From Chthoniobacterales bacterium (lineage in GTDB: Bacteria > Verrucomicrobiota > Verrucomicrobiia > Chthoniobacterales > JBDTJR01), in assembly GCA_039935735.1 (NCBI GenBank), contig JBDTJR010000258.1, forward strand, positions 1 to 52,294: a DNA stretch of 52,294 nucleotides, given 5' to 3'. Both the position numbers and the translations under genes were made by a program. The notes beneath the pieces are model-generated. The model was not told where the DNA came from. It did not search any database and worked only from the letters and a program-made list of their open reading frames with translations. The first letter of the stretch is position 1; each line of letters begins with the position of its first letter. Positions 9,807-29,615 of this stretch are shown here, in pieces.

Positions 9807-10574
9807 TCAAGCCGGAGAGACGAGTCGATCCTGAAGCTCCTTGAGGCTGACGGTAAGGGGGAGTTTGTTGCCATCGGCCATTTTGACGATGTGGCCACCC
9901 TTGCCCTCGGTCACGATCTCAAGCACATGGGTGAGATTCAGTATGGCAGAGCGGTTTGCGCGAAAAAATTTCTCAGGATCGAGTCTCGACTCCAGATGAC
10001 TCATGGTTTCGCGCAGGAGAAGACGCCGCCCATCACGCGTGCATATTTCCACATAGTTTCCACTGGCGAGACAGCAGACAATATCGATCACGGGAACGAT
10101 TGATATTTTGATGCCGTCTTTCACGGCAAGGCGCTGTGGATACTGCGCTGAGGCATTTTGTGGCACAGCATGCAACAAGGCTTCGAGTTTCGTCGTGACA
10201 CTCTCCTGCTGCCGGTCTTTCAAAATGCGACGGACGTGTTCGAGGCTTTCGTGAAGACGTTCCTGACGGAAGGGTTTCAAAAGATAATCCACCGCATGCA
10301 CTTCGAAAGCGCGCACGGCATGTTCATCAAAAGCCGTTACGAAAACAACCAGGGGGCGGCAATCCGGCGAGAGGTCTCTCAGCACATCAAAGCCATTCCG
10401 ACCGGGCATTTGAATATCCAGAAAGATCAGGTCGGGCGTATGCGCGACAATGGCGTCGAGTGCGACGTTTCCATTTTCGCATTCCCCGGCAATTTCAATA
10501 TCCAACTCTGCGCCTAAAAGTTTTCGCATGCGTTGCCGTGCGGGTGCTTCGTCATCGATAATCAAAACCTTCAT
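9807..10574 (-). CDS. LytTR-family two-component response regulator (AlgR/LytR-like)
   Basis: REC domain (IIDDEAPAR, FLDIQMP, FVTAFDEHAVRAFEVHAVDYLLKP) followed by a LytTR domain (ASGNYVEI, FFRANRSAILN). Confidence 0.95.
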   Translation of the reverse strand: MKVLIIDDEAPARQRMRKLLGAELDIEIAGECENGNVALDAIVAHTPDLIFLDIQMPGRNGFDVLRDLSPDCRPLVVFVTAFDEHAVRAFEVHAVDYLLKPFRQERLHESLEHVRRILKDRQQESVTTKLEALLHAVPQNASAQYPQRLAVKDGIKISIVPVIDIVCCLASGNYVEICTRDGRRLLLRETMSHLESRLDPEKFFRANRSAILNLTHVLEIVTEGKGGHIVKMADGNKLPLTVSLKELQDRLVSPA

Positions 10575-11764
10575 GAATTCTCTTTTTCAGGATGAATCGC
10601 GACGACCGGCATTTCGCAGCGTGCGGTGATGCCTCCCTGCGGATTAGGCAGGAGATCAAATGCCGTGGCGTGGCCGGGAAAAGATGCCGCGAGACGCGCC
10701 CGTATATTGGCTACCCCCACGCCATGACCCTTTTGTGCATCAAGCGTCCAGCCCGCACCGCTGTCCTCCACTTCGAGAACCAGTTTGTCGCCGATACGCT
10801 CCGAGCGCAGACGAAGCGTTGAGCCTTCGGGATTCGGATCGATGGCGTGCTTGATGGCATTTTCCAAAGCAGGCTGAAGAATCAAGGGGGGGACGGGACA
10901 GGCCAGTGTCTCCATGGAAATGGCCTCTTCAATTTTCAATCGCGCGCCGTACCGCGTCTGTTGAATCGCAAGATAGTCTCGTGCCAATTCAAGTTCCTGG
11001 CGAAGTGGAATGAGTGACTTGTCTCTCGTCTCCAATGTCGCGCGCATAAGGCTGCTTAGATTAAGCAACACTTCCTCCGCTTTATCGGGATCGGAATGCA
11101 CGAGCGAGGTCAGGGTATTGAGCGTATTGAAAAGAAAATGCGGCTGAAGTTGTGCGCGCAAAGCCTGCAGCCGCGCATCGGATAACTGCGCTTCCAGTTC
11201 CAAGGCGATGCGTGCTTTTTCCGAGGATTCGCGCCGCAGCTTAAAACTTCCCACCAGCAAAATCGCTGCCACATAGAGAGGCAGCCCCACGGGAAGACTG
11301 CGAAGAAAATTCCCTATGGCAGGACCATTTCGCGGATCGTTACGTGGATCATTTTGGCGACCGGGGGGCGGAAAGGGAGGTTGACCTGGTCCTGGAGGCA
11401 GGCCCTCCGCATGTGCGCCGAAAGGCGGCGGCTGTCCCCCTCCCTCTTCGGGGGGCGGCAGGACTTGTCTCGAAAGCCAGCCAGCAAAGAAAACGAGCAC
11501 ACTACAGGCGATGATATGACCGAAAATAGAACGCGCAGACAGTTTTCCACCCAAAGGCAAGGCATAGCCCATGAGCAGCATGAGCGGACTGACGACAATC
11601 CACGGCAGCCAAAGAATGAACGCGCCATGAAATGCCTGCGACGCATTGATTCCCAGAACCATGGAAGTCTGGGCAACGAAGAGAAGAATCAGGCATCCCC
11701 AAAATACAACAAACCCGCCCATGACGATAACGATCGGAGATGAGGAGCGGTCACCGGAGGCCAT
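10571..11764 (-). CDS. LytS/YehU-type membrane sensor histidine kinase
   Basis: N-terminal TM helices, H-box LRAQLQPHFLFNTLN, LQPALENAIKHA, VEDSGAG and GHGVGVANIRARL. Start taken at MASGDR (11764). Overlaps the regulator start by 4 nt. Confidence 0.92.
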   Translation of the reverse strand: MASGDRSSSPIVIVMGGFVVFWGCLILLFVAQTSMVLGINASQAFHGAFILWLPWIVVSPLMLLMGYALPLGGKLSARSIFGHIIACSVLVFFAGWLSRQVLPPPEEGGGQPPPFGAHAEGLPPGPGQPPFPPPGRQNDPRNDPRNGPAIGNFLRSLPVGLPLYVAAILLVGSFKLRRESSEKARIALELEAQLSDARLQALRAQLQPHFLFNTLNTLTSLVHSDPDKAEEVLLNLSSLMRATLETRDKSLIPLRQELELARDYLAIQQTRYGARLKIEEAISMETLACPVPPLILQPALENAIKHAIDPNPEGSTLRLRSERIGDKLVLEVEDSGAGWTLDAQKGHGVGVANIRARLAASFPGHATAFDLLPNPQGGITARCEMPVVAIHPEKENS

Positions 11765-11822
11765 ACCGCAAAATATTATCCTGCACAGGCAGTCTGCACA
11801 AACAAAAGTTCCGGGTATCGAA

Positions 11823-11876
11823 TTCGCCCCACTTTGGGCGGTGTTTGTCCCCTGAGTGGGCACTTTCGTCCCCTGA
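11823..11876 (+). promoter_or_regulatory. Three direct repeats at a 21-bp period; putative LytTR operator
   Basis: TTCGCCCCACTT (11823), TTTGTCCCCTGA (11844) and TTCGTCCCCTGA (11865), lying between the LytS/LytTR pair and the divergent operon. Confidence 0.7.
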
Positions 11877-11913: not shown

Positions 11914-12588
11914 ATGAAAATGAAATACCCTCGGGCGCAATGGAGAATCTCAATCCTTGCCGCCGCTGTTTTTGCGGGAACCCTCCATTCCTCGAAAGCC
12001 GAGGACTGGGAAAAGTCCTCGGGACTATGGACGCAGTCCGTCGTGCTGGAACAAAAGGCCAACTACGAAGGCTCGCTTGCCATCATGGGGGAGTTTGCAC
12101 GCGAGGGGCATGATAACTACCTCGCGATGCTGCGCAGCGGATGGCTGAGCTACGAAGCCAAGCAGTATAAAAAATCTATTCAATATTATGATGCAGCGGC
12201 AAGAGCCATGCCCACCTCCGTAACGCCGCTTCTTGGTTTGGCAACTTCCTATCGCGCGGATGGAGATACCGCTTCCACCGAAAAAACCTATGAGCAGGTT
12301 CTCATGCGTGATCCGGGAAATTATACCGCAGCGCTGGCGCTCGGAAGCTATTGGTATCTCAAAAACGATTTCTACAAAGCAGCGCAATATTATGCGCTGG
12401 TGCAAAAGCAATATCCTGAAGATACCACAAGCCTAAGCGGTCTCGGGTGGTCGCTCATTTATCTCAATAAAAAACGGGATGCGCAGCCGCTTTTTCAACG
12501 ACTGCTGATTTTATCGCCGACTTATCTCCAGGCGAAACAAGGCTATGACATTTCAGGCGGAAAGCAGGCTGTGGCAACTCGCCCCTGA
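11914..12588 (+). CDS. Secreted tetratricopeptide-repeat protein
   Basis: Signal peptide (MKMKYPR...HSSKA) followed by TPR-like helix pairs (LRSGWLSY..., LLGLATSY..., ALALGSYWY..., LSGLGWSL...). Start taken at 11914. Confidence 0.85.
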   Translation: MKMKYPRAQWRISILAAAVFAGTLHSSKAEDWEKSSGLWTQSVVLEQKANYEGSLAIMGEFAREGHDNYLAMLRSGWLSYEAKQYKKSIQYYDAAARAMPTSVTPLLGLATSYRADGDTASTEKTYEQVLMRDPGNYTAALALGSYWYLKNDFYKAAQYYALVQKQYPEDTTSLSGLGWSLIYLNKKRDAQPLFQRLLILSPTYLQAKQGYDISGGKQAVATRP

Positions 12589-12599
12589 ACTTTAATTTT

Positions 12600-12854
12600 A
12601 TGAACCGTCAACTCATCTCCAACTTTGCGGTCAGTCCGAACGGACTCGGATTTCGGTCCGACACTGGGGAAGTATATCGACTAAATCCCAGCGCGTGCGA
12701 AATCCTTCGACTAATCAGCGACGGGAAAGACGATGTTTATATTTCCCAATACCTCTCGGAGAAATATGCGCAACTCCTGCCGCGCATGCGGAATGATCTC
12801 TCTTCATTTTTTGAACATCTGGAAAACCTTCGACTCATCACCCCTCATGAATGA
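12600..12854 (+). CDS. PqqD-family / RiPP recognition element (RRE) protein
   Basis: 84 aa with TGEVYRLNPSACEILRLISDG...ISQYLSEKY...DLSSFFEHLENLRLI, the typical three-strand, three-helix PqqD pattern. Confidence 0.85.
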   Translation: MNRQLISNFAVSPNGLGFRSDTGEVYRLNPSACEILRLISDGKDDVYISQYLSEKYAQLLPRMRNDLSSFFEHLENLRLITPHE

Positions 12855-13917
12855 TAAAACGTTTCCTTTGCTTGCCGTCACGGGTCTTGGTCGTGGCGAA
12901 AATCCCCAACCCGGCTTTGCCGTGGCGGCAAGTTTGCTGCGAAACTGGCCCATGGCGCACATTGCTGGCCTGGCATACGATGCGCTTGAGAGCGGAATTT
13001 ATGCCACCGACTGTTTTGATGCCGTCTTTACGATTCCCTATCCCTCCGTGGGAACTCAGATAATGCTGGAGCGTATCGACGAGATTCGAAGCAAGTTTCC
13101 TTTTACCGTGCTTATTCCGACATTGGACGCAGAGTTGGAACTTTTCATAAGCCTGCGCAAGGAACTGAATGATCGCGGGATTCAAGTGATGCTACCGGAC
13201 AGCGATGCGCTAAAGGCACGAAGAAAATCCAACCTCCCCACTCTCGCCGCAGCCGCAAAAGTCAAAGTCCCTTGCACCTATATCGCAAACAGCGCTTATG
13301 AGGCCGCCGAATATTGTGCAATAATCGGATCAGCCGTCATGGTCAAAGGGCCTTTTTATGAAGCACGCCGCGCGGAATCTCCCTTCATAGCAAGTGTACA
13401 CGCAAGCCGGATTCTAGCCGAGTGGGGCGGGCCGATCATTGTACAGGAAATCATCACGGGAACAGAATTTGATCTACTTGGCCTGGGCGACGGCACGGGC
13501 CGCATGCTGGGCTCGTGCTCGATTCGCAAGATGGTCGTCTCCTCCCAGGGTAAAGGATACGCGGGAATTACCGTGCATGACAAAAATCTCCTGAGTGTGT
13601 GCGAATCACTTCTCAAGGAATTGAAATGGAAGGGCCCTCTGGAATTTGAATTCATACGAGACAAGGACGGAGAATTCTACCTGATTGAAATTAATCCCCG
13701 ATTTCCTGCGTGGGTGGATTTCCCCGCTCAGCTCGGATGCAACCTCGCGCAGGCTGCCGTGGAAAATCTTCTCGGATGGGAATCGAAAATGCTATGCGAC
13801 ATTCCTGCCGGAAAGATCTTTCTGCGTCACAGCGTGGACATGATTTGTGATGTCGAAGAATTCGCGGCTCTTACTGCGGAAGGCTCCATTGTTCGCACCT
13901 ACACCGATCTCGTATGA
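12847..13917 (+). CDS. ATP-grasp carboxylate-amine ligase
   Basis: Motifs LIPTLDAEL, VMVKG, IIVQEIITGTEF, WKGPLEFEF and YLIEINPRF. Start taken at MNDKTF (12847), overlapping the PqqD stop. Confidence 0.9.
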   Translation: MNDKTFPLLAVTGLGRGENPQPGFAVAASLLRNWPMAHIAGLAYDALESGIYATDCFDAVFTIPYPSVGTQIMLERIDEIRSKFPFTVLIPTLDAELELFISLRKELNDRGIQVMLPDSDALKARRKSNLPTLAAAAKVKVPCTYIANSAYEAAEYCAIIGSAVMVKGPFYEARRAESPFIASVHASRILAEWGGPIIVQEIITGTEFDLLGLGDGTGRMLGSCSIRKMVVSSQGKGYAGITVHDKNLLSVCESLLKELKWKGPLEFEFIRDKDGEFYLIEINPRFPAWVDFPAQLGCNLAQAAVENLLGWESKMLCDIPAGKIFLRHSVDMICDVEEFAALTAEGSIVRTYTDLV

Positions 13918-15365
13918 AAACTCCCACTGCTTACGAACCACCTCGTATCGAGCTACTCGAAACGGGCCACATGAACCGAACGGCTTATGGCACACAGCCC
14001 ACCTGCTGCAAGGCAATAGACGGAATCGAGATTGAGGAACTCCTCAAAGCGCATGGTTCGCCGCTCTTTGTATTTTCAGAACGCACGCTTCGACAAACTT
14101 TTCAGCGCGCAAAAGCGGCGTTTGCGAGACACTACCCAAATTTTCAATTCGCATGGTCTTATAAGACGAACTATCTCAAAGCAATCTGTGCGGTTTTTCA
14201 CAGCGAAGGCGCTTTTGCGGAAGTCGTCTCGGAATTCGAATACGAAAAGGCGCGTGGGATGGGCATTCTCGGAAAGGAAATTATTTTCAACGGACCGCAT
14301 AAGCCGAGGAATGTTCTTCGTCGCGCATTGCTGGAAGGTGCACGCATCCAGATTGATCACTTCGAGGAATTAATTGCGGTGGAGGAAATCGTCGCGGAGG
14401 AAGCGCTGGATAATGCATGCGTTTCCCTGCGCCTTTACCTTGATGCGGGCATACGGCCCATTTGGTCGAAGTTTGGTTTTAATCTTGAAGATGGCGAGGC
14501 ATGGCGTGCCGCCCAGCGTCTGCACCACGGCGGCGTGGTGCGTCTCACCGGACTACATACTCACCTGGGAACTTTTATACTCGACCCAAATGCCTACCGC
14601 ATCGCCGCGGGCAAGCTGACGCAGTTTGCCGCGCGCATGCACAAGGATCTGGGTTTTGAAATTAACACTTTGAATATGGGCGGAGGCTTTGCATCACGCA
14701 ATACGCTGCATGGTCAATATCTCCCAGCGGAACAGATCACGCCGGATTTCGAGGCGTATGCGGCAGCGATCAGCGAAGGAATTTTTAACAATCTGCCGGT
14801 GGACATGAAACCTCCGAAGCTGCTTCTTGAATCCGGAAGATCTCTTGTTGACGAAGCGGGTTACTTGCTCACCACGGTCATCGCCAATAAACGCAATCGT
14901 CTTTTTTCCGAAGCCGCCGCTCTGGCCACCGCAGCAAAAGGCCCCGTGAGCCAACGGACTGCGTCGTGTGTTCCAGGATCACCAGCGATCATTGTCGATG
15001 CAGGGGTTCATCTTCTTTATACGGCAAACTGGTATCGGCATAAAATTCAACCCGTGCGGGCATCGTCGGGACAACCTGTTCCCACGACCGTTTACGGATG
15101 CCTGTGTATGAATATCGACGTCATTCAGGAAGCAACTCCCCTCCCCGGACTTAGCCCCGGCGATACCCTCGTTATTCATCCGGTGGGCGCCTACAACATC
15201 ACGCAGTCGATGCAGTTTATAGGTTACCGCCCTGCCGTCGTCATGGTCATGGAAAATGGAGATGTGGAGGTCATTCGATCTCGCGAAACTCTCGCTTACG
15301 TGGAGGCTCTCGAGTATTTGCCTGAATTTATCCGAAACAAAAAAATGGAGAACATTACCGTATGA
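13914..15365 (+). CDS. PLP-dependent fold-type III decarboxylase-family enzyme (diaminopimelate decarboxylase-like, substrate uncertain)
   Basis: HGSPLFVF, SYKTN (PLP lysine), IIFNGPHK, SKFG, GLHTHLGT, LNMGGGF, ESGRSLV, GCLCMNID and VGAY. ATGA overlap with the ATP-grasp gene. Confidence 0.88.
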   Translation: MKTPTAYEPPRIELLETGHMNRTAYGTQPTCCKAIDGIEIEELLKAHGSPLFVFSERTLRQTFQRAKAAFARHYPNFQFAWSYKTNYLKAICAVFHSEGAFAEVVSEFEYEKARGMGILGKEIIFNGPHKPRNVLRRALLEGARIQIDHFEELIAVEEIVAEEALDNACVSLRLYLDAGIRPIWSKFGFNLEDGEAWRAAQRLHHGGVVRLTGLHTHLGTFILDPNAYRIAAGKLTQFAARMHKDLGFEINTLNMGGGFASRNTLHGQYLPAEQITPDFEAYAAAISEGIFNNLPVDMKPPKLLLESGRSLVDEAGYLLTTVIANKRNRLFSEAAALATAAKGPVSQRTASCVPGSPAIIVDAGVHLLYTANWYRHKIQPVRASSGQPVPTTVYGCLCMNIDVIQEATPLPGLSPGDTLVIHPVGAYNITQSMQFIGYRPAVVMVMENGDVEVIRSRETLAYVEALEYLPEFIRNKKMENITV

Positions 15366-17560
15366 GTTCTTCATTTCATTCCTTGAGAAAAACTTTCCTA
15401 CTGTCGGAACTCAGTTACGCAAATGTGCTTTTTACCGGCGAGGCGAAGATGGGAGCGTTGCTACTTCTTACAACATTTCTCAATCCCTGGCAGGGCGCTA
15501 CCGGACTCGCAGGAATTCTACTCACTCTCTGGATTGCGAACAAAACAGGATTCGACTGTTTTTCAGTTTCCAGCGGACAGCTTCTTTTCAATTCTCTTTT
15601 ATCCTCACTCGCCCTCGCCTATTGGCTGCCGTTTGGTTCTGTCTCTTTGATGATTTATGTCGCACTTCTTTGTTTTATTTGTGCGGCAACGCTGGGTGTT
15701 ACGTTAGTTCTTAATCATTGCACGATTACCCTCACCGGCATACCAGCGCTGAGTCTTCCATTTTGCGCCACGTCGACGGCTTTGCATTGGATCATTGTAC
15801 AAACGGGGCTTACTTTTCATCTCCCCGGATCGCATAGCAGTCTTTTCACGCTGGAACTTCCTGCACACGTGACGCTCTGGCTGGAATCTTTAGGATCAAT
15901 TTTCTTTCTTCCCCATATCGATGCAGGAATCTTTATCGCCGTTATCGTTCTCCTTACCACACGGCTTAACTTTCTTTATGCCATAGTCGGTTTTGCCGTC
16001 TCGATGGGAGTGATGCGCGGTACAGGATACTCTGTGAACGAATCTGCGTGGCTGCATTTGAACTGCATCCTTTGCGCGATGGCTCTGGGAGGCACTTTTT
16101 TTGTTCCGTCGCGTTACTCACTTTTGGTCGCGGTTGTCGGCTCCGCTTTTTGTGCTCTTATCGGAATAGCATCTATTCACTTCCTTCAACTGCTTGATAT
16201 TCCCGTCCTGACATTGCCATTTAACATAACCGTTATAGGTATTGTCGCCGCATTGCGTTGGAGAATAAGCCGGACGCATCCCACTTCGGTATCGATTCCC
16301 GGTTCCACACCGGAAGCCACCTTCCGAATCGCACAACTTACGGAGGCACGCTTCCCAGACTCCGATTTGCCAACACTCGCACCGCCTTTCGATGGTGAGT
16401 GGATTGTCACACAGGGCTTTGAAGGAAAACTGACTCACCGGGGGGCGTGGCAGCATGCGCTGGATTTCGAAGTTGCGGACTCGACTCATAAACCAGCACG
16501 ACCAAAGAGTTCGGAGCTTAAGGATTTCCCATCGTTTGAAGCTCCCATCGTAGCTCCTTCTGATGGGAAAATCATAAGCATCATTGACGATGTCGCGGAT
16601 AATCCCATTGGGGAAAACAACCTTTCTGATAATTGGGGGAATTCCATACTAATGGAACTCTCTCCTGGTCTCTACGTGCAGCTTTCTCATTTTCGCCGCC
16701 AGGGCATTCGAGTACGGGAAGGAGATCGCGTAAGACGAGGTCAGCTTCTCGGTTATCTCGGCAATTCCGGACGGTCTCCCCTCCCTCACCTGCACTTGCA
16801 AATGCAAACCATTCCCGAAATCGGAGCTCCTACAATTCCCTTTCGCTTTCATGGCTATCGCACACCTGCGGAATCATCCAGGTGGTTCTATCACTTCCGG
16901 GGATTGCCGTTGGAAAACCAACCACTCGCGGGGTGTCGGAAAACACGTTGGATGGAAGATTGTTTTAACTATCCTGATGAGCGTGACCATCAATACCGGG
17001 TATTCACCGCCGCAGGAGAAGATGAAGAAACGCTTCATTTTTTAACAAACCCCGATGGCAGCCCTCATTTATATTCTTCAAAATATTCCTCACATCTTCA
17101 TTTGAAAATTTATAATCACCATCTGATTCCATGGGATTACAAGGGCCCTCGAAATGGCATCCTCTTCCTGTTGTGGCAAGCCGGCAGAATACCGCTTTTC
17201 CCAATCGGTGGACTGACATGGAATGAAACGGTAAGTACAAACCCTGGTTCAGGCTTTCAAAAGGCGTGGGGTGATCTTCTTGCGCCTTTCACACAATCCA
17301 AGCTCCCTGAGTTGAGCGGCGAAATACTGGATTATGATAACGCCACAAAGCAATTTACCATTCGCTGCCATTTCCATAGTCGCTCTTCAAAAGAATCTCT
17401 TCAAATTCTCGAGCTTTGCTTCGATAACCAACTCCTGCTGGTCTCCGGACGCATCGAGACGAGTAAAAGCTGGATGCGTTTCATAACCTCAAAATCGCCT
17501 GATCTTCCTTACGGAATATTCCCCATTTCGGAGAGGGAGGAATCTCGCTGTTTAGTCTAA
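15362..17560 (+). CDS. Urea-transporter-family membrane domain fused to an M23 metallopeptidase domain and an unknown C-terminal domain
   Basis: Hydrophobic N-terminal ~300 aa with the duplicated UT signature IPALSLPF/IPVLTLPF. Then THRGAWQHALDF, APSDGKI, WGNSI, GDRVRRGQLLGYLGNSGRSPLPHLHLQ (M23 HxH motif). Confidence 0.85.
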   Translation: MSSSFHSLRKTFLLSELSYANVLFTGEAKMGALLLLTTFLNPWQGATGLAGILLTLWIANKTGFDCFSVSSGQLLFNSLLSSLALAYWLPFGSVSLMIYVALLCFICAATLGVTLVLNHCTITLTGIPALSLPFCATSTALHWIIVQTGLTFHLPGSHSSLFTLELPAHVTLWLESLGSIFFLPHIDAGIFIAVIVLLTTRLNFLYAIVGFAVSMGVMRGTGYSVNESAWLHLNCILCAMALGGTFFVPSRYSLLVAVVGSAFCALIGIASIHFLQLLDIPVLTLPFNITVIGIVAALRWRISRTHPTSVSIPGSTPEATFRIAQLTEARFPDSDLPTLAPPFDGEWIVTQGFEGKLTHRGAWQHALDFEVADSTHKPARPKSSELKDFPSFEAPIVAPSDGKIISIIDDVADNPIGENNLSDNWGNSILMELSPGLYVQLSHFRRQGIRVREGDRVRRGQLLGYLGNSGRSPLPHLHLQMQTIPEIGAPTIPFRFHGYRTPAESSRWFYHFRGLPLENQPLAGCRKTRWMEDCFNYPDERDHQYRVFTAAGEDEETLHFLTNPDGSPHLYSSKYSSHLHLKIYNHHLIPWDYKGPRNGILFLLWQAGRIPLFPIGGLTWNETVSTNPGSGFQKAWGDLLAPFTQSKLPELSGEILDYDNATKQFTIRCHFHSRSSKESLQILELCFDNQLLLVSGRIETSKSWMRFITSKSPDLPYGIFPISEREESRCLV

Positions 17561-17567
17561 TGAATGC

Positions 17568-19724
17568 CTACGCACCCTGTCTGTTCTCGAGACGCTCCAG
17601 CGCTTTTTCGAGAGCAAGCGAAAGCGACCACTGTCGGATTGGCTTGGTAAGAAAATCATCCATGCCCGCTTCTTCGGCTCTACGTCTGTCTTCCGGAAGA
17701 ACGGCTGCCGTAAGTGCAATGACCTCGACTCTTGGAGAGTGTCTTCCGGCTTGTTCAAGACGACGAATTTCGCGTGTAGCCTCGAACCCATCCATTACGG
17801 GCATCTGGCAATCCATAAGGATGACATCGAAACTTTCCGAATTTTGAACCATGAGAGCGGCGATCCCGTTTTTTGCACTCACGATGTGTTCGCAACCCAT
17901 GCGCTTGAGTAGAAGTGTGATCAGTTTCGAATTCGATTCGTTATCATCGACTACGAGAATCCGTAGATTGGAAACATTTTTTGAAACCTTCGGAATTTGA
18001 AACTTTTCCTCTGCTGCCAAATTTTCATTAATGATTGAATGGTGCCTGGGCTCCGACGACTTCGAAAACGGTACCTCGAAATGGAAGATCGAGCCTTTAT
18101 CCATTTCGCTTTCCACCCAAATACGTCCACCCATGGCTTCGATAAGCGACTTACTAATCGCAAGCCCCAGTCCCGTTCCGCCAAACTGGCGTGAGGTTGA
18201 AGAATCCACCTGTGCAAATCGCTCGAATATTTGCACATATTTATCCTCAGGAATGCCGATTCCCGTGTCCTCTATTTTAAAATGCAGTAAATGCTGTGCG
18301 GCTTCCTCCCGCTTTGTGTCTTCCACTTCGCTGGAAGTAAGCTGGATTTCCACAACCCCAAGTGTAGTAAATTTTATGGCATTCGATGTGAGGTTAATTA
18401 AAACCTGCTTTAATCGATTCGCGTCTCCCATCAGAAAGGCAGGAACGGCAGAATCGATCGATACCTTGAAATTCAGATTTTTCTCCCGCGCTTTTTGCGA
18501 AAAAAGTTCCTCCACCTGTCGCACACAAAGCGTTGGTGAAAATACGTTGTTCTCAAGATCAATGCGTCCCGCTTCAATTTTTGAATAGTCGAGGATATCA
18601 TTGATGAGATTGAGCAGTACCTCTCCGCCCGTGAGGATGGGTTTAATAAGTTCGCGGGATTTTTCCGTAGGGCCGGTATCCCACAGAAGACTGGCAAAGC
18701 CGAGAATACTGTTTAGAGGAGAGCGAATCTCGTGGCTCATGGCCGCGAGGAACATACTCTTTGCATCTTCAGATAATTTTGCCCTACTGGTTGCAGCCAG
18801 GAGTTCAATCTTATCCCTCCGGATGGACTCCATTAATGTCGCCACCAGAATCGACGGAATGATTATCAATATTATTCCCGCATACCTTGCCGGATCAAAT
18901 CCGGGATGAAAAGCAAATGTCTGCAGCACAATGCCGGTCGTCGTTACAATATCGATTGAGAGTAAAGTAATCAGATTGAGAAAAAAACTTACACTGAGCG
19001 GCAACATCAGTGCGGCGATAACCAGCACGAGATTCAAAAGCAATACCGGAGGAAAGGAATGCTGTCGGGCAACTCCGGTAATCAACACAAAGAACACCAC
19101 GAAAATCACTACCAGAATCAAGAGATCTTTATTCCACAAAGCCCGTAGTCGCTCCCGCGTAATTGCCAGACAGAAAGGAAGCGCCGCAAACATTCCCAGC
19201 ACATGTGCAAGATACCACTGGAATGTATAACCCGGGAAATCTGTTATTCTAAAAATCCATACTCCTAAAGCACCAATCAGAAAACCCACCAAAGGAGCGA
19301 CAAGCATTGAAGGAGCAACACCCAAAATCAAACCTTTGATTCCGTGAGGAAAATTATGCGGCACATTAAAGCGGGAAATCAGCGCAATCCCCACCACGAT
19401 TTCAGCAAAATTTTGAGCAGTTAGAATTATAGAGGCCGTCAATGCGTATCCATATATCAAATATGCCGCAAGTATCAGGAGTCCTGTTATTGCCAATGCG
19501 CTGGCGCGTCTACGTTTCGGAAAACGCGTAATTGCGGCTGCCGCAATGCCTCCAGGGAGCCACACGGTCGCTACAATATTCGACTGACTCGCAAGATAGA
19601 TGCACAGCAGAGACAGGCAAAAATATAAAAAGCCGCAAATACAAAAAAAGAGCGCTCTCGATAGACGAAGAAATCGAATGTTCTCCGGCGGCTTCATAAG
19701 ATACCTTTCCGCAGACCGGAACAT
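17568..19724 (-). CDS. Hybrid sensor histidine kinase (MASE1-like TM region, HisKA, HATPase, REC)
   Basis: Multiple TM helices with VWLPGG; FLAAMSHEIRSPLN; NLTSNAIKFT; DTGIGI; GGTGLGLAIS; VVDDN...LMDCQMPVMDG...GMDDFLTKP. Confidence 0.95.
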   Translation of the reverse strand: MFRSAERYLMKPPENIRFLRLSRALFFCICGFLYFCLSLLCIYLASQSNIVATVWLPGGIAAAAITRFPKRRRASALAITGLLILAAYLIYGYALTASIILTAQNFAEIVVGIALISRFNVPHNFPHGIKGLILGVAPSMLVAPLVGFLIGALGVWIFRITDFPGYTFQWYLAHVLGMFAALPFCLAITRERLRALWNKDLLILVVIFVVFFVLITGVARQHSFPPVLLLNLVLVIAALMLPLSVSFFLNLITLLSIDIVTTTGIVLQTFAFHPGFDPARYAGIILIIIPSILVATLMESIRRDKIELLAATSRAKLSEDAKSMFLAAMSHEIRSPLNSILGFASLLWDTGPTEKSRELIKPILTGGEVLLNLINDILDYSKIEAGRIDLENNVFSPTLCVRQVEELFSQKAREKNLNFKVSIDSAVPAFLMGDANRLKQVLINLTSNAIKFTTLGVVEIQLTSSEVEDTKREEAAQHLLHFKIEDTGIGIPEDKYVQIFERFAQVDSSTSRQFGGTGLGLAISKSLIEAMGGRIWVESEMDKGSIFHFEVPFSKSSEPRHHSIINENLAAEEKFQIPKVSKNVSNLRILVVDDNESNSKLITLLLKRMGCEHIVSAKNGIAALMVQNSESFDVILMDCQMPVMDGFEATREIRRLEQAGRHSPRVEVIALTAAVLPEDRRRAEEAGMDDFLTKPIRQWSLSLALEKALERLENRQGA

Positions 19725-23654: not shown

Positions 23655-25862
23655 TCAGGGTGCAGACGGGCCGGAACTCGGAGCCATAATCCCATGCTGG
23701 GAAACCGTCGATTTTGCAATTTTGGGATTTACCCTTGGGCAAAGCCAGTGAACGAAAAACATTTCCGCAAGCATCATTAAGCAGGCAAGACCAACAAACC
23801 ACGGCCAAAGCTGTACTCGACCAGTCGATACGGATGGATTTTTAGCATTGGGGTCAGGGCGGATAAACTCGAAGCTGGCTCCGTTCCACCACGACTTTAA
23901 AGTATCCGAAGAAATCGGTGTCAGGTTACTGTCTCCAAGCCCTGGCTGAACAACAAATGGAATGGACTTGTCGGGGCTTCCGCCGACTTCCTGCACTACA
24001 TACACGCCGATTTCGTTGACGGCATCCAGACGCATAATGGTTTGGGAATTAATGTTGTGAAGCGTGGGTGTAATGGTTTTACCGCTCGGTGTAGTAACAG
24101 TAACCTTCGTGTCCTTTCCCGAAACGGTAAGCGGGAATGCAATGACATCCCCCACCTGAAATATCCGGCGAACAATACCGCCAGCCAAACGGGTAATGAT
24201 ACGATCCAGCAAAGGAACGTAACTGTTGCGACGGGGAAGATCACTCCAGTCATCATTTGCCGTGGTATTAAAAAAGATGACCTTGCCGAGACCGTAGGTG
24301 CGCTCAAGAAGCAGGGGATCGAGATCATTAATCCATGCAAGAATTTCGGCGGCACTTCCATCAGGAATATTTCCCAAATGGTAATAACTCCGGAATTTTG
24401 TCTCGCTCAAATCATTGAAGGTCGGATCAAAAAGCGGCGCGAGCATGGGATGATTCCATTGAATTCTGGTAATACTGGCGAGTTGGGCTCCCGCCTGCTC
24501 GGCATTTACAAGATTGGTAAGCGGCGCTGGCGATAAGCCGTCAACAGGATGCGCGGGATTAAAGAGTTTGTTATTATAAAATGGCGGTTGAACCGAGGGG
24601 CCTAGGAAAACCACAAGTCCCGCTCCGGCACGCACGCGATTTTCAAGCGCCGCAAGTGTGGTATCGGATAACTGGGGAACATTCACCATGAAAATGACAT
24701 CTGCATCGGCGAGATCCTGCGTACTGACAAGCGCAGGTGTTTTTTGTGAAATTTTCAGATTGCCATTTCCCGCATAAGCCAGCGCTTCCAATGCCATGCG
24801 TAAATGCAAGCCGGGGCGCAGCGATGCGACCTGTGTGGACTCCGGCTCGATCATCAAAACTTTCGTGGTGCCACGCGTGTCGAGGTTCAGCCATGCCCGA
24901 TCATCACTCGGAAGGGAATCCTTCGGGTCGAGTTCGATCTGGGCGACTTTGCCTTTCAGATCATAAGTGACAGGGATTTCAATATCCACCTGCACAAGTT
25001 GACCGGGAACAAGACTCACTTTTTGATTTTGATTCGGAAGCCCCGGAAGATGGGTGATGATAACATTTCGTTTTTGACCTTCGTCACCCACACACCCAAC
25101 CTGCACCCGAATGACGCGTTTTGCCGGATTGAAACTCTCTATGAGGTGCACATTCGAAATCCATGCATTCTGCGGAGAAGTAACGCCCACATCGACGAGG
25201 TGAACATGCACCGGAGTTTTCAGCCCCGAGAGAAAGGAAAATATCTCACCCTGAGACCAGCTTTGCTGGTGATTATCCGTAATGAAATAAAGCTCAGCAC
25301 TCGTATTCGCACGGGCTTGCGACAGCACAGGACGAATGATTTGCAGGGCAGAGCTCAAGTCCGTATCCGTTAAAGTCACTTGTGCGGCATCAAGCCTGGG
25401 AAGATAGAGATCGGCATTCTGGATGGGGCTACCCAGTGCGGTGGAGGTATTACCCGTGAGAATTACCGCCGTATCATCCCCTGCCACTCCCTGCCCCAGA
25501 AGACTCTCGGCAACTTTTTTTCCCTGATCAAAAGGTGACGGGCGATCCGGCGTCTGGTAGCTCATGCTCCGGCTGACATCCAAAATGATGAACCGCTCCG
25601 TAAATCCTTTCTGCCCGGTAAGCGACAGAATGGGCTTGGCGAGTGCCAGCACCAAAAAAAGAATGAAAAGCGCACGAAGAATGAAGAGCAGGATCTGATG
25701 CCACTGAAGCCGCCGGGCAAGACGCTGCTGCGTCACGCGAAGCCATCGCAAACTACTGAAAGGCGTTTGCCTTACCTTACGCGGCTTGAAAATGTGAATA
25801 CCTATCGGAATCGCCAATAGAGCGGCGCCAAGCAAGGCCAGAGGTGCGAGAAAAGCAAACAT
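23655..25862 (-). CDS. BatA-domain / VWA membrane protein
   Basis: BatA-like N-terminus (IPIGIHIF...PFSSL...LLFILR...LALAKP), LDVSRSM, FITDN, DDWSDLP and C-terminal TM LWPW...AE. Confidence 0.85.
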   Translation of the reverse strand: MFAFLAPLALLGAALLAIPIGIHIFKPRKVRQTPFSSLRWLRVTQQRLARRLQWHQILLFILRALFILFLVLALAKPILSLTGQKGFTERFIILDVSRSMSYQTPDRPSPFDQGKKVAESLLGQGVAGDDTAVILTGNTSTALGSPIQNADLYLPRLDAAQVTLTDTDLSSALQIIRPVLSQARANTSAELYFITDNHQQSWSQGEIFSFLSGLKTPVHVHLVDVGVTSPQNAWISNVHLIESFNPAKRVIRVQVGCVGDEGQKRNVIITHLPGLPNQNQKVSLVPGQLVQVDIEIPVTYDLKGKVAQIELDPKDSLPSDDRAWLNLDTRGTTKVLMIEPESTQVASLRPGLHLRMALEALAYAGNGNLKISQKTPALVSTQDLADADVIFMVNVPQLSDTTLAALENRVRAGAGLVVFLGPSVQPPFYNNKLFNPAHPVDGLSPAPLTNLVNAEQAGAQLASITRIQWNHPMLAPLFDPTFNDLSETKFRSYYHLGNIPDGSAAEILAWINDLDPLLLERTYGLGKVIFFNTTANDDWSDLPRRNSYVPLLDRIITRLAGGIVRRIFQVGDVIAFPLTVSGKDTKVTVTTPSGKTITPTLHNINSQTIMRLDAVNEIGVYVVQEVGGSPDKSIPFVVQPGLGDSNLTPISSDTLKSWWNGASFEFIRPDPNAKNPSVSTGRVQLWPWFVGLACLMMLAEMFFVHWLCPRVNPKIAKSTVSQHGIMAPSSGPSAP

Positions 25863-25903
25863 CAGTTTATAGCGAAAATAAATTCAGCGAAGACGTGTTC
25901 ATA

Positions 25904-26917
25904 TTATCCTCTGATCTTTGCACGCCGGTTCAAGTAAGCAAAAAGCGCTTTATCATAGGGTTCATGGGTATTGACGCGTTCGTAATCAATTCCCATCTCC
26001 ACAAGTCCCTTACGATAGTATGCGTGAGTATCCTCAAGGCTTTTAAGGTACAAAGCACGGGCGGAGGCGGGATCGATCTCCATCTCCTCGCCAGTTTCCA
26101 TATCGCGAAAAACAGTGGCACCGTCGAACGGAAATTCAATTTCCGCCGCATCCTGAATGTGAAATACGATCACATCGTGTCCATGACTCTTAATCAACCG
26201 TAGCGCCTTCAGCGTGTCTTCAGGATCATCGATAAGATCGCTGACAACGACGACAAGACCTTTCCGCTTCAGATTACGCACGATCGCACGCAGACTTGAT
26301 GAAACATTAGTTTCACCCGAGGGTGGGTTACGAATCATTACCTGCATCATCTGTCGCAAGTGCGATGTGCGGCAGCGTGGTGGAATGAGAAACCCGGGTT
26401 TGGCCCCAAAGAGCGCGAGGCCAGCGGCGTCCTGCTGCTTCATCATGAGATAAGCAAGACAGGTGACAAGAAAGCAGGAGTAATCCCACTTTGTCATCGC
26501 GCCGGTGCCAAATGCCATGGAGGCCGAGCGATCCAGCACGAGATAGCAGCGAAGATTCGTCTCCTCCTCGTAGCGCTTGATGTAGTAGCGATCCGTGCGC
26601 GCATAGACCTGCCAGTCCATGTATTTCAAATCATCACCCGGAACGTATTCACGATGATCGGCGAACTCCACGGAGAAACCGTGAAACGGACTTTTGTGCA
26701 AGCCGCTGATAAATCCTTCAACAACCAAACGCGCAATCAGGGGCGTAAGGCCGAACTGTGTAAGCACCGCGGGGTCGAGGTAACGTTGATTGCCCCCACC
26801 CTGCATAACGCCCCCAAGTACCCTGGGATTGGCGCGCTCCATGACGTTCTTGCGGAAACGATCCGCAAAGTCACGGGCGCGAGCCGTTAGTTTTTCCTTC
26901 CAGGATTTCAGAGGCAT
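25904..26917 (-). CDS. DUF58 family VWA-like protein
   Basis: GLHKSPFHGFSVEFADHREYVPGDDLKYMDW, KRYEEETN, LDRSASM and VVSDL. Confidence 0.93.
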   Translation of the reverse strand: MPLKSWKEKLTARARDFADRFRKNVMERANPRVLGGVMQGGGNQRYLDPAVLTQFGLTPLIARLVVEGFISGLHKSPFHGFSVEFADHREYVPGDDLKYMDWQVYARTDRYYIKRYEEETNLRCYLVLDRSASMAFGTGAMTKWDYSCFLVTCLAYLMMKQQDAAGLALFGAKPGFLIPPRCRTSHLRQMMQVMIRNPPSGETNVSSSLRAIVRNLKRKGLVVVVSDLIDDPEDTLKALRLIKSHGHDVIVFHIQDAAEIEFPFDGATVFRDMETGEEMEIDPASARALYLKSLEDTHAYYRKGLVEMGIDYERVNTHEPYDKALFAYLNRRAKIRG

Positions 26918-26943
26918 TGTGCGATTACTTGAGATTGACCAAA

Positions 26944-27945
26944 TTACGAACCCGAACGCTCAGGCACTTCCTTGATCAGGCGCTGTACGATCGTATCCGT
27001 GGTGATGCCTTCGGCTTCTGCCGTAAAGCTCGCCGCGATACGGTGACGAAGCACGGCCAGCGCGACATAACGAATGTCATCACAGGATACATTGACACGA
27101 CCCGAAAGCGCGGCGTGACATTTTGCGCATAGAATAAGGGCCTGACTTGCACGCGGACCTGCACCCCAGCCGATTTGCTCTTTCACAAATGCCGGCACGC
27201 CAGATTCATTCGGCCGAGTCGAACGCACAAGGTCGACGGCATAACCCGTGACATGGCGCGAAACCGGAATACTGCGAACAATGTTCTGGAAGAACAATAC
27301 GGTGGGCGCATCGCATACGGCCTGGACATCGGAGACTTCATTCGAGGTCGTCCTTAATACAATGTCCTCTTCTTCCTGAGCCGTGGGATAATTAATAAAG
27401 GTATTCATGAGGAAACGATCTTTCTGCGCTTCTGGCAGAGGATAGGTTCCTTCCTGGTCGATCGGGTTCTGCGTCGCGAGAACGAAAAAAGGAGGCTCTA
27501 GCGTGTAGGTCTGTCCGCCCGAAGTGACCTCCTTTTCCTGCATCGCCTGGAGCAATGCAGCCTGTGTCTTCGGCGGAGTACGGTTGATTTCGTCCGCGAG
27601 AACAATGTTTGTAAAGACAGGACCCGGAACAAATCGAGTGACGCGCTTGCCGGTTTCATGGTCTTCCTCGATGACATTCGTGCCGACGATGTCCGAAGGC
27701 ATGAGATCGGGCGTAAACTGAATACGCTTGAAATTAAGGGAGAGCACTTTCCCCAGCGTATTAATCATGAGTGTCTTGGCAAGGCCCGGCACACCCTCGA
27801 GAAGATTGTGTCCGCCGGCAAAAACAGTAATGAGAAGCTGCTCGAGCACCTCATGTTGGCCGACAACGGTTTTCCCCAGCTCAGCAAGCATCTTATTGCG
27901 GTAGGCGTGAAGTGTTTGGATATTTTGTTGGATTTGGTCGCTCAT
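26944..27945 (-). CDS. moxR: MoxR-family AAA+ ATPase
   Basis: Walker A LLEGVPGLAKT, RIQFTPDLMPSD, Walker B LADEINR, ATQNPIDQEGTYPLPEAQKDRF and GAGPRA. Confidence 0.96.
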   Translation of the reverse strand: MSDQIQQNIQTLHAYRNKMLAELGKTVVGQHEVLEQLLITVFAGGHNLLEGVPGLAKTLMINTLGKVLSLNFKRIQFTPDLMPSDIVGTNVIEEDHETGKRVTRFVPGPVFTNIVLADEINRTPPKTQAALLQAMQEKEVTSGGQTYTLEPPFFVLATQNPIDQEGTYPLPEAQKDRFLMNTFINYPTAQEEEDIVLRTTSNEVSDVQAVCDAPTVLFFQNIVRSIPVSRHVTGYAVDLVRSTRPNESGVPAFVKEQIGWGAGPRASQALILCAKCHAALSGRVNVSCDDIRYVALAVLRHRIAASFTAEAEGITTDTIVQRLIKEVPERSGS

Positions 27946-28076
27946 GTTAGTCGTGGATTTTTAATCGATATTAAAAAATATAATTAGATATTGTGTAGGA
28001 TAGGATAGGGCAGGACAAGCAAAGGAAAGCGGTTTAAAATACGCCGTAATCTGGATTGTTTAGGAAAGGCAGGTTC

Positions 28077-29615
28077 TTAATGACTAAGTGCATAGGTAAT
28101 GATATCGATCGCAACTTTTAAGGAATCCGAAGACGAAATTCCTTTGGCATAGGCATTGGATTCACGGTTAAGACCGCTGTTAAAATCATAAGGCGTGTAA
28201 AGCACCGCCAGGCGGTCATTAATGAATAATCCATAAAATTCGGGCGTGCTAAGGTCTGGATTATCCTTAAGCGCGGCAGGTGTGTAGCTGATACGCTCCA
28301 AAGGATTCCAGCCCCCCGTAAAAAGAGGGTGCGAGGGAGGAATTTTGACGAGTTCGCTTTTAGGAAACATTTCCTGAAGCTCATGACGAAAGGCGGTATC
28401 GAATGGCGAGAGTCCACCGGCTGCGCTGGCAACCAGCATACCGCCGCGCTGGAGATAACGGATCAGTCCTTCGCGTTCCTGAGGAGTGAGTTCAAAATTA
28501 TAGTGCCCCGTCATGAAGATCAGCGGGTAATTTCCAAGTGTGGGATCGTCGAGTGAAACGACATGAGGCGCAAAATCCACATCGATGTGCGTATTATCAT
28601 TCAGCCCCAGAAGAAGGCTATTTTGTATGCCAGGATTAACATCCCAACTGCCATTGTAACGGACGAGTCCAAAACGGAAAACATCCCCGGCCTTCGTATG
28701 ACTGTCGTATTTCGGAAATTGCTGGGAAAGAAATTTTCCGTAAGCGGTATTTCCCAGCACATAGGAGATCATATTGACACCGAGCCGGATGGCAGCTTCA
28801 CCCATGATATGTTTCCCTGCGGGATTATAGGAAGTTTCACTCCATGCCGTACCGAGACCATAGGGAACAAGAATAGCCGCCGCGCGAGTTCCGATATCGA
28901 GTGTATAAATATCCGGTGGTTTACTTATTTTTATTCCATTCACCATGGTGGACACATCCTTGATACGGTCGAAAGAATTAAGAAGAGGATGATCCGGCGG
29001 GATCTTCATGAATCTTTTCTTTGGAAAGACCTTCCGCATCTCACGCATCACAGCGATGGAAAAGGCATCCTGTCCACGCGCAGCATTAAAAATGATTGTT
29101 CCTCCCGCGGTAAGATAACGGTGGAGATTTTCTACTTCTGCATCCGTCAATACAAAATCATAATCCCCCGTCATGTAGAGAATGGGAATATCCACCGGAT
29201 CGAAATCCGGACTCGCCAAAGGCTTCGTGTCGTACTGGTAGTTATTCCCGCCCGGCAAACGTTTGTTCGTAAAGGCTACAAGGTTGGAGGCATCGTTAGG
29301 AAAGCTCTTCCATTGATCAAATAATGTGACTTTTCCGGCGCTATCCACATATTTCAGCTTTTCGCCATATTCCACCTTATACATCACCGTCAACGAAGGC
29401 GGCGCGGGAGGGCTGCGTTCCTGGGATTTTCGCATTCCCGGGCCATTGGTCATCGTGATGTCGATTGTCTCACTGCTCGAAACCGTCTTGGGCGGAGATT
29501 TAGCGGCGGGAGGAGGCGCAGATTCCGCAGGTGGAAAATTTACAGCACGTTGCGCATCTGCCTTAAAAGGCAGCATACCAAACGTAAAAATTACAAAAAA
29601 TACAAAGACTCTCAC
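28077..29615 (-). CDS. Secreted protein with two tandem DUF4159-like domains
   Basis: Signal peptide, then two copies of P(I/L)(L/I)(Y/F)MTG...L..YL..GG...F..E....FP......IPP.HPL. GTG start overlaps the upstream stop. Confidence 0.8.
   Translation of the reverse strand: MRVFVFFVIFTFGMLPFKADAQRAVNFPPAESAPPPAAKSPPKTVSSSETIDITMTNGPGMRKSQERSPPAPPSLTVMYKVEYGEKLKYVDSAGKVTLFDQWKSFPNDASNLVAFTNKRLPGGNNYQYDTKPLASPDFDPVDIPILYMTGDYDFVLTDAEVENLHRYLTAGGTIIFNAARGQDAFSIAVMREMRKVFPKKRFMKIPPDHPLLNSFDRIKDVSTMVNGIKISKPPDIYTLDIGTRAAAILVPYGLGTAWSETSYNPAGKHIMGEAAIRLGVNMISYVLGNTAYGKFLSQQFPKYDSHTKAGDVFRFGLVRYNGSWDVNPGIQNSLLLGLNDNTHIDVDFAPHVVSLDDPTLGNYPLIFMTGHYNFELTPQEREGLIRYLQRGGMLVASAAGGLSPFDTAFRHELQEMFPKSELVKIPPSHPLFTGGWNPLERISYTPAALKDNPDLSTPEFYGLFINDRLAVLYTPYDFNSGLNRESNAYAKGISSSDSLKVAIDIITYALSH

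Follow-up and report, generated by a model that had tools for sequence, protein, structure and literature searches.

In the pyrroloquinoline quinone (PQQ) and mycofactocin pathways, a PqqD-family chaperone and a peptidase give a small product that is cut from a peptide, and, to our knowledge, the RRE proteins (recognition elements of ribosomally made peptides with post-translational modifications (RiPPs)) characterized so far bind gene-encoded leader peptides. The butirosin route places a small protein and an ATP-grasp ligase in series, with an amide 'protecting group' that is later removed by a hydrolase, and the peptidase-containing ATP-binding cassette (ABC) exporters of bacteriocins couple cleavage and release through a cytoplasmic peptidase fused to the export pore. 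FigC, SbnH, AcsE, MccE and BtrK decarboxylate amino acids that are already linked to a larger group, BtrK doing so within the butirosin side-chain route (as described in sections of PMC7857480). Here we describe a five-gene operon from a Chthoniobacterales bacterium (GenBank assembly GCA_039935735.1) that encodes a tetratricopeptide-repeat (TPR) protein, a PqqD-family chaperone, an ATP-grasp ligase, a pyridoxal-phosphate (PLP) decarboxylase and a fusion of a urea-transporter-fold channel with an M23 metallopeptidase (Table 1). The operon lies on contig JBDTJR010000258.1, of which we analysed positions 1 to 52,294 (hereafter, the window). We tentatively propose, at somewhat less than an even chance, that the module is a ligate-then-decarboxylate pathway, the product of which would be processed by a cytoplasmic M23 domain located at a channel for small solutes before it reaches partners in the periplasm and the outer membrane.

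The gene set is conserved as a whole in at least 594 species genomes of the Fibrobacteres–Chlorobi–Bacteroidetes (FCB) and Planctomycetes–Verrucomicrobia–Chlamydiae (PVC) groups, Myxococcota and others, and is more widespread and elaborate than an earlier note, made from the sequence of the window alone, could see. In a scan of species representatives (one genome per species), 594 of the 599 pattern matches listed encoded a relative of the fusion protein; exhaustive searching for the fusion family gave 630 representatives at E ≤ 1e-30, and a word-indexed search returned more than 290 homologues of about 730 amino acids (aa). From the species scan, 80 loci were kept for neighbourhood analysis, with phyla as named in the genome records: Verrucomicrobiota, Planctomycetota, Myxococcota, many Bacteroidota, Ignavibacteria, Cloacimonadota, Fibrobacterota and a few Proteobacteria. 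The closest related locus among the matches listed belongs to an Opitutales metagenome-assembled genome. All-against-all clustering of the open reading frames (ORFs) of the 80 loci and the window yielded six recurrent families—the five of the operon and a TPR-headed outer-membrane barrel (Table 1).

In the 80 loci, gene order is kept across phyla wherever the contig is long enough, which is how the conservation check suggested in the earlier note turned out. The decarboxylase gene lies directly upstream of the fusion gene in all 67 loci with room (a script count of 65 of 67 reflects ORF-boundary artefacts in L043 and L067, both of which have the gene), and the ATP-grasp gene lies upstream in 57 of the 58 loci with room, an insertion in L028 having pushed it off the contig. 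The chaperone gene directly precedes the ATP-grasp gene in 64 of the 80 loci, and in all 16 misses the contig ends before the expected place. The commonest order (35 loci) is chaperone, ATP-grasp, decarboxylase, fusion, barrel and TPR, and all other orders are either truncated or have the TPR gene shuffled. Three of the Verrucomicrobiota/Planctomycetota loci have the TPR gene first and no barrel, as in the window, and in G166, the complete genome of a verrucomicrobium, the order is chaperone, ATP-grasp, decarboxylase, fusion and TPR. The TPR family was found near the module by tblastn in 70 of the 80 loci (as an ORF in 68). Within the window's own phylum, the ATP-grasp family was present in only 2 of 200 other sampled genomes; given this patchy occurrence, the module is accessory and probably spreads horizontally. 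Its carriers include at least one strain in culture, the Pedobacter isolate of L080, which makes the module accessible to direct testing. Bacteroides thetaiotaomicron gave no evidence of the module (PqqD matched; the urea-transporter model (UT) stayed below its cut-off).

In the window, the five co-oriented genes are packed as the earlier note had described. The TPR and chaperone genes are separated by an 11-nt gap (12589–12599, read directly from the sequence), the chaperone and ATP-grasp genes share the 8-nt overlap ATGAATGA (12847–12854), and ATGA overlaps join the ATP-grasp gene to the decarboxylase gene (13914) and the decarboxylase gene to the fusion gene (15362). On the evidence of these overlapping start and stop codons, the genes are translationally coupled. 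The ATP-grasp start is placed at 12847 rather than at the longer ORF start of 12733 because the alignment with homologues of about 350 aa begins at that methionine. All domain assignments of the earlier note (secreted TPR, PqqD/RRE, ATP-grasp, PLP decarboxylase fold and UT/M23 fusion) agree with the Pfam matches.

Table 1 Features of the window and of related loci. Positions are those of the window unless a locus is named; the last column gives the number of loci in which clustering recovered the family, including the window where it clustered.
Feature	Position	Strand	Evidence	Loci
TPR protein, 224 aa	11914–12588	+	TPR_16 55.9 bits and other TPR models; signal-peptide-like N terminus	69
PqqD-family / RRE-type chaperone, 84 aa	12600–12854	+	PF05402 35.7 bits (cut-off 23.4), E = 1.1e-8	54
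ATP-grasp ligase, 356 aa	12847–13917	+	ATPgrasp_Ter 30.6 bits, ATP-grasp_3 25.6 bits	65
Fold-III (alanine-racemase-fold) PLP decarboxylase, 483 aa, FigC/FslC-like	13914–15365	+	Orn_Arg_deC_N 103.9 bits; both Pfam domains match	74
Fusion protein, 732 aa	15362–17560	+	UT 128.7 bits and Peptidase_M23 41.8 bits	76
Fusion, urea-transporter-fold channel domain (residues 1–310)	15362–16291	+	PF03253 E = 3.2e-37, profile positions 7–289 of 292
Fusion, M23 metallopeptidase domain (residues ~336–490)	16367–16831	+	PF01551 41.8 bits
Fusion, C-terminal beta-rich domain (residues 492–714)	16835–17503	+	no Pfam match; tentatively LolA-like open barrel
TPR-headed outer-membrane barrel				55
LytS-type histidine kinase, divergent	10571–11863	−	His_kinase PF06580 95.1 bits and HATPase_c
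LytTR response regulator, paired with the kinase	9807–10574	−	Response_reg 86.2 bits and LytTR 55.6 bits
MASE1 hybrid histidine kinase	17568–19724	−	HisKA, HATPase_c, receiver
BatA/VWA, DUF58 and MoxR-type AAA operon, then DUF4159 protein	23655–29615	−	'aerotolerance' type gene set
ORF, 1299 aa	35694–39593	−	no Pfam family at E ≤ 1e-5
ORF, 803 aa	21397–23808	−	no Pfam family at E ≤ 1e-5
ORF, 367 aa	20228–21331	−	no Pfam family at E ≤ 1e-5
IF-2B-family insert, L014	8037–8945
IF-2B-family insert, L062	7991–8908
IF-2B-family insert, L074	7339–8295

The best solved relative of the decarboxylase is the N-citrylornithine decarboxylase FigC/FslC (7kh2; E = 1.7e-51), compared with E = 4.3e-31 for the best diaminopimelate decarboxylase and E = 4.6e-22 for BtrK; the NCBIfam FslC model scored 193 bits (cut-off 500). 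The catalytic loop reads G-x-L-C-M-N-I-D, in which C398-M399-N400-I401-D402 aligns with C-M-Q-H-D of FigC. The C-M-N-I-D stretch is 98–100% conserved in 74 sequences (M399, 100%), and K84, H215, G256-258, E306, C398 and Y427 are 94–100% conserved, with the roles of the catalytic Lys, His, Gly loop and Cys taken from the FigC alignment and from sections of PMC7857480. The acidic residue beside the catalytic Cys is replaced by Met, as in FigC, where the Met takes the place of an Asp that binds the free side-chain amine of the substrate in ornithine, arginine and diaminopimelate decarboxylases (sections of PMC7857480). This FigC-type Cys–Met loop, together with the conjugate-acting relatives, is the main reason for reading the module as 'ligate, then decarboxylate', and the enzyme is predicted to act on conjugated amino acids. 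The window copy also has a 24-aa insert (residues 331–354; 14904–14975) at the region matching the FigC 'specificity helix', a feature of ~5% of the 74 members.

The ATP-grasp ligase has 43 positions that are invariant in 43 sequences, including K127, K167, E281, N283 and R285, and its mean column identity is 60% (chaperone, 40%; fusion C-terminal domain, 32%). Comparison of its profile with Protein Data Bank sequences placed the carbamoyl-phosphate synthetase large chain (E = 1.1e-15) and 2pn1 (E = 4.6e-15) closest, with biotin-carboxylase-type domains also near. PRK12767 models matched at E = 2.7e-16, yet far under their cut-offs, and the graspetide maturase model TIGR04187 reached 15.7 bits (cut-off 350). 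Judged by these profiles, the ligase is of the PRK12767 or 'carbamoyl-phosphate-synthase-like' kind, nearest to amino-acid-ligase types and not to graspetide maturases. The public names of its homologues are generic only; the Pedobacter orthologue matches PylC-like_N below the cut-off and the Atlas neighbours carry PylC-like_N, both of which we regard as leads only. An ESM Atlas cluster of 344 members (721-aa proteins, mostly from Pseudomonadota) has a similar ATP-grasp domain in a doubly long protein and may represent a fused form.

The 84-aa protein was correctly recognized in the earlier note as a member of the PqqD/RRE family, given its PF05402 score above the cut-off and profile matches to B1 proteins. 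Its family profile matched the lasso B1 proteins TbiB1 at E = 5.1e-13, and TfuB1 at E = 1.7e-8, and PqqD (3g2b) at E = 0.026, and the NCBIfam PqqD equivalog scored 20.4 bits (cut-off 46). By profile similarity, the chaperone is thus most like the B1 leader-binding chaperones of lasso peptides, far more than PqqD. It is the one PqqD-family gene in the window's genome. G15 and G23 are the only invariant positions in 43 sequences, and the C terminus is not conserved (about half of the C termini, read by eye, end in Asp or Glu). These properties argue against a covalent carrier role, so a LysW-like carrier with a C-terminal Glu and an acyl carrier protein (ACP)-like carrier with a Ser were both rejected. 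Complex prediction for the ATP-grasp ligase and the chaperone (score 0.03, mark 0.32) gave no answer either way.

The AlphaFold model of the fusion protein (predicted local distance difference test (pLDDT) 91.6, predicted template-modelling score (pTM) 0.89) contains a channel domain that matches solved urea transporters in Foldseek with target-normalized TM (TMt) values of 0.75–0.85 and keeps both LP..(S/T)LPF signature stretches of that family. The M23 domain matches Csd, DipM, EnpA and ShyA in Foldseek, and its H359, D368, H443, H476 and H478 are invariant in 63 sequences. The C-terminal domain, modelled alone, reached a pLDDT of 90.3 and is weakly conserved (11–36% identity to the window copy); its best Foldseek matches are LolA proteins (E = 1e-4, TM only 0.3–0.4), and VIA-align gave Z values of 9.7 for 4fvs (a putative lipoprotein), 9.1 for DUF1849 and 7.5–7.6 for LolA. 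The same M23 subtype (PPFxGEWxVxQGG ... ALD ... HLHLQ) occurs behind a different multi-helix anchor, without UT, in four proteins of about 343–355 aa (P0246, P0247, P0249 and P0252), one of which is named as from an Acidobacteria genome. Two candidate variants of the fusion were rejected. Of the apparent stand-alone M23 plus C-terminal-domain proteins, the two best matches lie on contigs of ~1.2 kb and are probably fragments, and the rest belong to the related M23 subtype with another membrane anchor; N-terminal extensions of ~85–100 aa (P0350, P0316 and P0320), considered as fused chaperones, showed no PqqD by Pfam, are by eye of low complexity and are probably over-called starts.

Urea transporters have an N-in, C-in arrangement, and the charge distribution of the fusion protein follows it. 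Over 63 sequences, the number of Lys and Arg residues is high at the N terminus (1.2), in loop 63–75 (1.8) and in the stretch after the membrane domain (3.1), and low in the central loop (0.48) and in loop 222–228 (0.03); no hydrophobic span occurs beyond residue 310. Three of the 150 best fusion representatives (P0329, P0360 and P0387; 1073–1085 aa) extend into a hydrophobic 19-mer (Kyte–Doolittle hydropathy 2.0–2.25, richer in Lys and Arg upstream) that is followed by two TPR copies. This TPR region is homologous to the window TPR protein, including the LRxGWLxY motif (E = 6e-11), and the free TPR protein begins with the signal-peptide-like MKMKYPRAQWRISILAAAVFAGTLHSSKA. These natural fusions indicate joint action of the channel and TPR proteins, with the TPR protein on the opposite side of the membrane from the M23 module, and, taken with the charge bias, they place the M23 and C-terminal domains on the predicted cytoplasmic side. 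The earlier note was right about the M23 domain itself; the predicted topology, away from the peptidoglycan side, makes direct action on the peptidoglycan sacculus unlikely. The outer-membrane barrel protein of Bacteroidota-type loci starts with a signal peptide and has TPR-like repeats, and an aromatic residue closes its C-terminal region; the Atlas puts it beside YaiO-family outer-membrane barrels, which we treat as a lead only.

On the basis of the domain identities, the cross-phylum gene order, the intact catalytic residues, the Cys–Met loop, the channel–TPR link and the sequence evidence for topology, we infer a scheme that assigns substrates, an order of reactions, a direction of flux and a role for M23. 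In it, a self-contained module would make a small product bearing an amine or amide and pass it to a conduit that spans the envelope. The ATP-grasp ligase would act in the cytoplasm, linking the side-chain amine of an amino acid to a carboxylate while the alpha-amino-acid end stays free, and the FigC-like PLP enzyme would then strip the alpha-carboxyl group to give a conjugate of the N-acyl diamine type. The PqqD/RRE-type protein may hold a peptide-like partner or dock the enzymes. M23, tethered at the cytoplasmic face of a urea-transporter-type trimeric channel and beside a possible ligand-binding barrel, would cut an amide bond and so free the product at the channel mouth, from where the periplasmic TPR protein (in Bacteroidota-type loci, also an outer-membrane protein that combines TPR and beta-barrel parts) would carry it onward. 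The ligation/decarboxylation machine coupled to a channel-peptidase that the earlier note had envisaged is partly supported and remains the best reading, to which the third domain of the fusion, the cytoplasmic placement of M23 and the barrel are now added. In a more specific and rather doubtful version ('make-and-vent'), a small amine or amide that is reactive or toxic would be assembled in masked form on an RRE-held peptide-like handle, decarboxylated while masked, unmasked by M23 at the channel and released through the TPR and barrel proteins. If so, the free product would never accumulate in the cell, and more than 600 bacterial lineages would have a new class of RRE-dependent pathway without a gene-encoded precursor, together with the first function for a cytoplasmic M23 and for a UT channel with a solute other than urea.

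Several observations weigh against the ligate-then-decarboxylate reading. The narrow urea-transporter pore could pass only a very small, probably uncharged solute and is the weakest point of any export model; the NCBIfam urea-transporter equivalog TIGR03441 scored 49.4 bits on the fusion, far below its cut-off of 274.6, and the channel domain may be a mere membrane scaffold. The RREs characterized so far bind encoded leaders, and no conserved precursor-peptide ORF was found within 2.5 kb of the module in the 80 loci and the window (ORFs of 12–80 aa; blastp-short E < 1e-3); the only clusters of small ORFs shadowed the chaperone gene, in antisense or out of frame, and the window operon, with gaps of ≤11 nt, has no space for a precursor gene. 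The first motif of M23 is atypical (HRGxWxxALD, not HxxxD), with the His and Asp nine residues apart rather than four. The LolA-like assignment of the C-terminal domain is tentative and weak, the best Z of 9.7 comparing with best Z values of 7–8 that are typical of models without a clear match. Finally, the barrel is missing from the window and from L001, L003, L004, L019 and L084 (Verrucomicrobiota/Planctomycetota loci with DNA past the fusion gene), as well as from L085, and was not found in the window's 86%-complete genome with a single Pedobacter query, a search that does not show absence.

An alternative that we judge unlikely, and nonetheless take seriously, is a new lasso-like RiPP class in which the RRE presents a leader, M23 serves as the leader peptidase, the ATP-grasp ligase makes an isopeptide or attaches an amino acid and the product is tailored by the decarboxylase, the precursor being encoded elsewhere or too variable to be detected. 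The best profile match of the chaperone is to a lasso B1 protein, and an RRE, a peptidase and an ATP-dependent amide former mirror the B1/B2/C division of labour. MccE, which is related to the decarboxylase clade, also tailors a ribosomal peptide product (sections of PMC7857480). The lack of a conserved precursor gene weakens a classical RiPP reading, and the very strong conservation of the enzymes across phyla suggests one fixed substrate rather than variable cores. The ligase, moreover, falls far short of the graspetide maturase model, no ABC exporter is present and a peptide cannot pass a urea-transporter pore. We consider it improbable that the module modifies a peptidoglycan precursor or another lipid-linked envelope intermediate in the cytoplasm. 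There, the ATP-grasp ligase would extend the stem peptide by an amino acid, and the end of this amino acid (or of diaminopimelate) would be trimmed to an amine by the decarboxylase; the stem peptide would be recognized by M23, the lipid tail by the barrel-like domain, and the TPR and outer-membrane barrel proteins would read the modified wall from outside. Precedents exist in an ATP-grasp enzyme that adds D-aspartate to nucleotide precursors and in the cadaverine-linked peptidoglycan of Negativicutes; M23 proteins, relatives of diaminopimelate decarboxylase and ATP-grasp ligases all have peptidoglycan-related members, the M23 domain matches Csd, ShyA and DipM, LolA-like folds bind lipid tails (from the titles of the structural matches) and periplasmic and outer-membrane partners are conserved. 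Against this, the families that recur in the 80 loci include no mur, mra or lipid II genes, the scheme leaves the channel domain without a role, RREs are not known to bind D-amino-acid stem peptides, and the patchy spread within the phylum fits an accessory trait better than wall building.

Uptake and trapping, in which a small urea-like solute would enter through the barrel and the channel and be captured in the cytoplasm by ATP-dependent ligation, agrees with the retained urea-transporter fold and both signature stretches and with an ATP-grasp profile nearest to carbamoyl-phosphate synthetase and biotin-carboxylase-type domains. However, the window contains no gene for a urease, an allophanate hydrolase, a biotin carrier or another catabolic protein, and none recurs in the 80 loci; the conjugate-acting decarboxylase, the RRE and the peptidase would have no obvious role, and the fusion is far from the urea-transporter equivalog; we regard this explanation as highly improbable. 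That the five genes are unrelated neighbours without a functional unit has a negligible chance of being correct, given the overlapping start and stop codons, the order kept across Verrucomicrobiota, Planctomycetota, Myxococcota, Bacteroidota, Cloacimonadota, Fibrobacterota and Ignavibacteria, and the natural fusions that join the channel protein to the TPR protein.

The regulators near the module vary: LytTR genes occur in 11 loci by clustering (14 by tblastn), LytS in 9, AraC-type in 13 and NtrC-type in 4. The LytS/LytTR pair noticed in the earlier note is indeed divergent from the operon, but, being nearby in only 9–11 of the 80 loci, it does not belong to the core; the LytS kinase is probably a local regulator in the window. 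A MASE1 hybrid histidine kinase gene converges on the operon and ends 8 nt past it, and several other loci likewise have related hybrid kinases close to the module. The remaining genes of the window are ordinary chromosomal genes, among them those for alanyl-tRNA synthetase and 2-oxoglutarate dehydrogenase E1 and a BatA/MoxR operon. GC content across the window gave no sign of a genomic island, and promoter and terminator scans were uninformative (3 promoter-like sites versus 5.8 expected; 10 terminator-like sites versus 7.1 expected). The assembly comprises 2.92 Mb in 261 contigs and is 86% complete. Among the other loci, three of Bacteroidota have an IF-2B-family gene (a sugar-phosphate isomerase family that includes, for example, MtnA) between the decarboxylase and fusion genes (Table 1). 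Five (L023, L029, L030, L035 and L071) have, upstream of the ATP-grasp gene and in or beside the module, a gene for a secreted protein whose C-terminal sorting domain is of the type IX secretion kind, and a sixth copy in L077 lies ~6 kb downstream on the opposite strand. Six loci have a membrane acyltransferase_3 gene nearby. L040, recorded as Bifidobacteriaceae, has a Bacteroidota-like module with the TPR gene between the decarboxylase and fusion genes and the barrel gene after, and its name may reflect a binning error.

As far as we searched, the module is undescribed as a combination; it is built from known families and known chemical logic, and there is a fair chance that it represents a new pathway class. 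None of the curated NCBIfam models reached its cut-off on the five proteins, and the PADLOC anti-phage defence models assigned them to 0 families. Literature searches on the domain combinations of the module returned no description of the set; a 2026 paper lists the UT plus M23 architecture without function or gene context (PMC12998343, its supplementary tables lying outside the searches). These results agree with the view of the earlier note that no known pathway is matched. They also bear on annotation: tools that treat every PqqD-like gene as a RiPP marker would misfile a module with an RRE and no precursor, the predicted cytoplasm-facing M23 calls into question the customary annotation of such genes as wall hydrolases, and a urea-transporter fold in a biosynthetic operon suggests that the family carries solutes other than urea.

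Comparison with peptide-based pathways shows likeness in parts. Lasso B1/B2/C machinery resembles the module in combining a leader binder, a peptidase and an ATP-dependent amide former, but the peptidase here is M23 and the ligase ATP-grasp, and no precursor or transglutaminase-type B2 was found, nor any Asn-synthetase-type cyclase in the window; the B2 protease family PF13471 was not found in the window's 86%-complete genome by a search that, as a control, matched 2 of 14 known genomes. Unlike the PQQ and mycofactocin pathways, the window has no radical SAM enzyme, PqqA/B/C/E or precursor, and the chaperone profile approaches PqqD only marginally. Pfam searches of window ORFs of ≥110 aa gave no radical SAM, YcaO, lanthipeptide synthetase, lasso cyclase or PQQ genes, in line with the earlier statement that pqqABCE, radical SAM enzymes and lasso cyclases are lacking; pqqA, pqqB, pqqC and pqqE were absent from the window ORFs, the part of the genome that was searched for them. 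With ABC bacteriocin exporters we draw a working analogy only: theirs is an ATP-driven pump with a C39 peptidase, whereas the module has a passive narrow channel with M23, and its cargo cannot be a peptide. The channel shares its fold and pore signatures with the urea transporters dvUT, Yut and UT-A/UT-B and differs in being fused to M23 and a further domain and in having no urea-metabolism neighbours.

The closest chemical parallels come from the conjugate-acting decarboxylases. In butirosin BtrI/BtrJ/BtrK, as in the module, a small protein (~85 aa) works in series with an ATP-grasp ligase and a fold-III decarboxylase, and BtrK is a detectable relative of the decarboxylase; the small protein of the module has the PqqD fold rather than an acyl-carrier fold, with no conserved Ser, Cys or C-terminal attachment residue. 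FigA/FigC (FslA/FslC) of rhizoferrin synthesis, SbnE/SbnH and AcsD/AcsE follow the same logic of side-chain ligation to a carboxylate and then alpha-decarboxylation by a fold-III PLP enzyme. Their ligase is an IucA/IucC-type NRPS-independent siderophore (NIS) synthetase, a type found neither in the window nor among the recurrent families of the 80 loci, whereas the ligase of the module is ATP-grasp. Compared with these pathways, the module has no major facilitator superfamily (MFS) exporter and no TonB-dependent receptor, and its RRE chaperone, its fusion of channel and peptidase and its TPR protein are additions.

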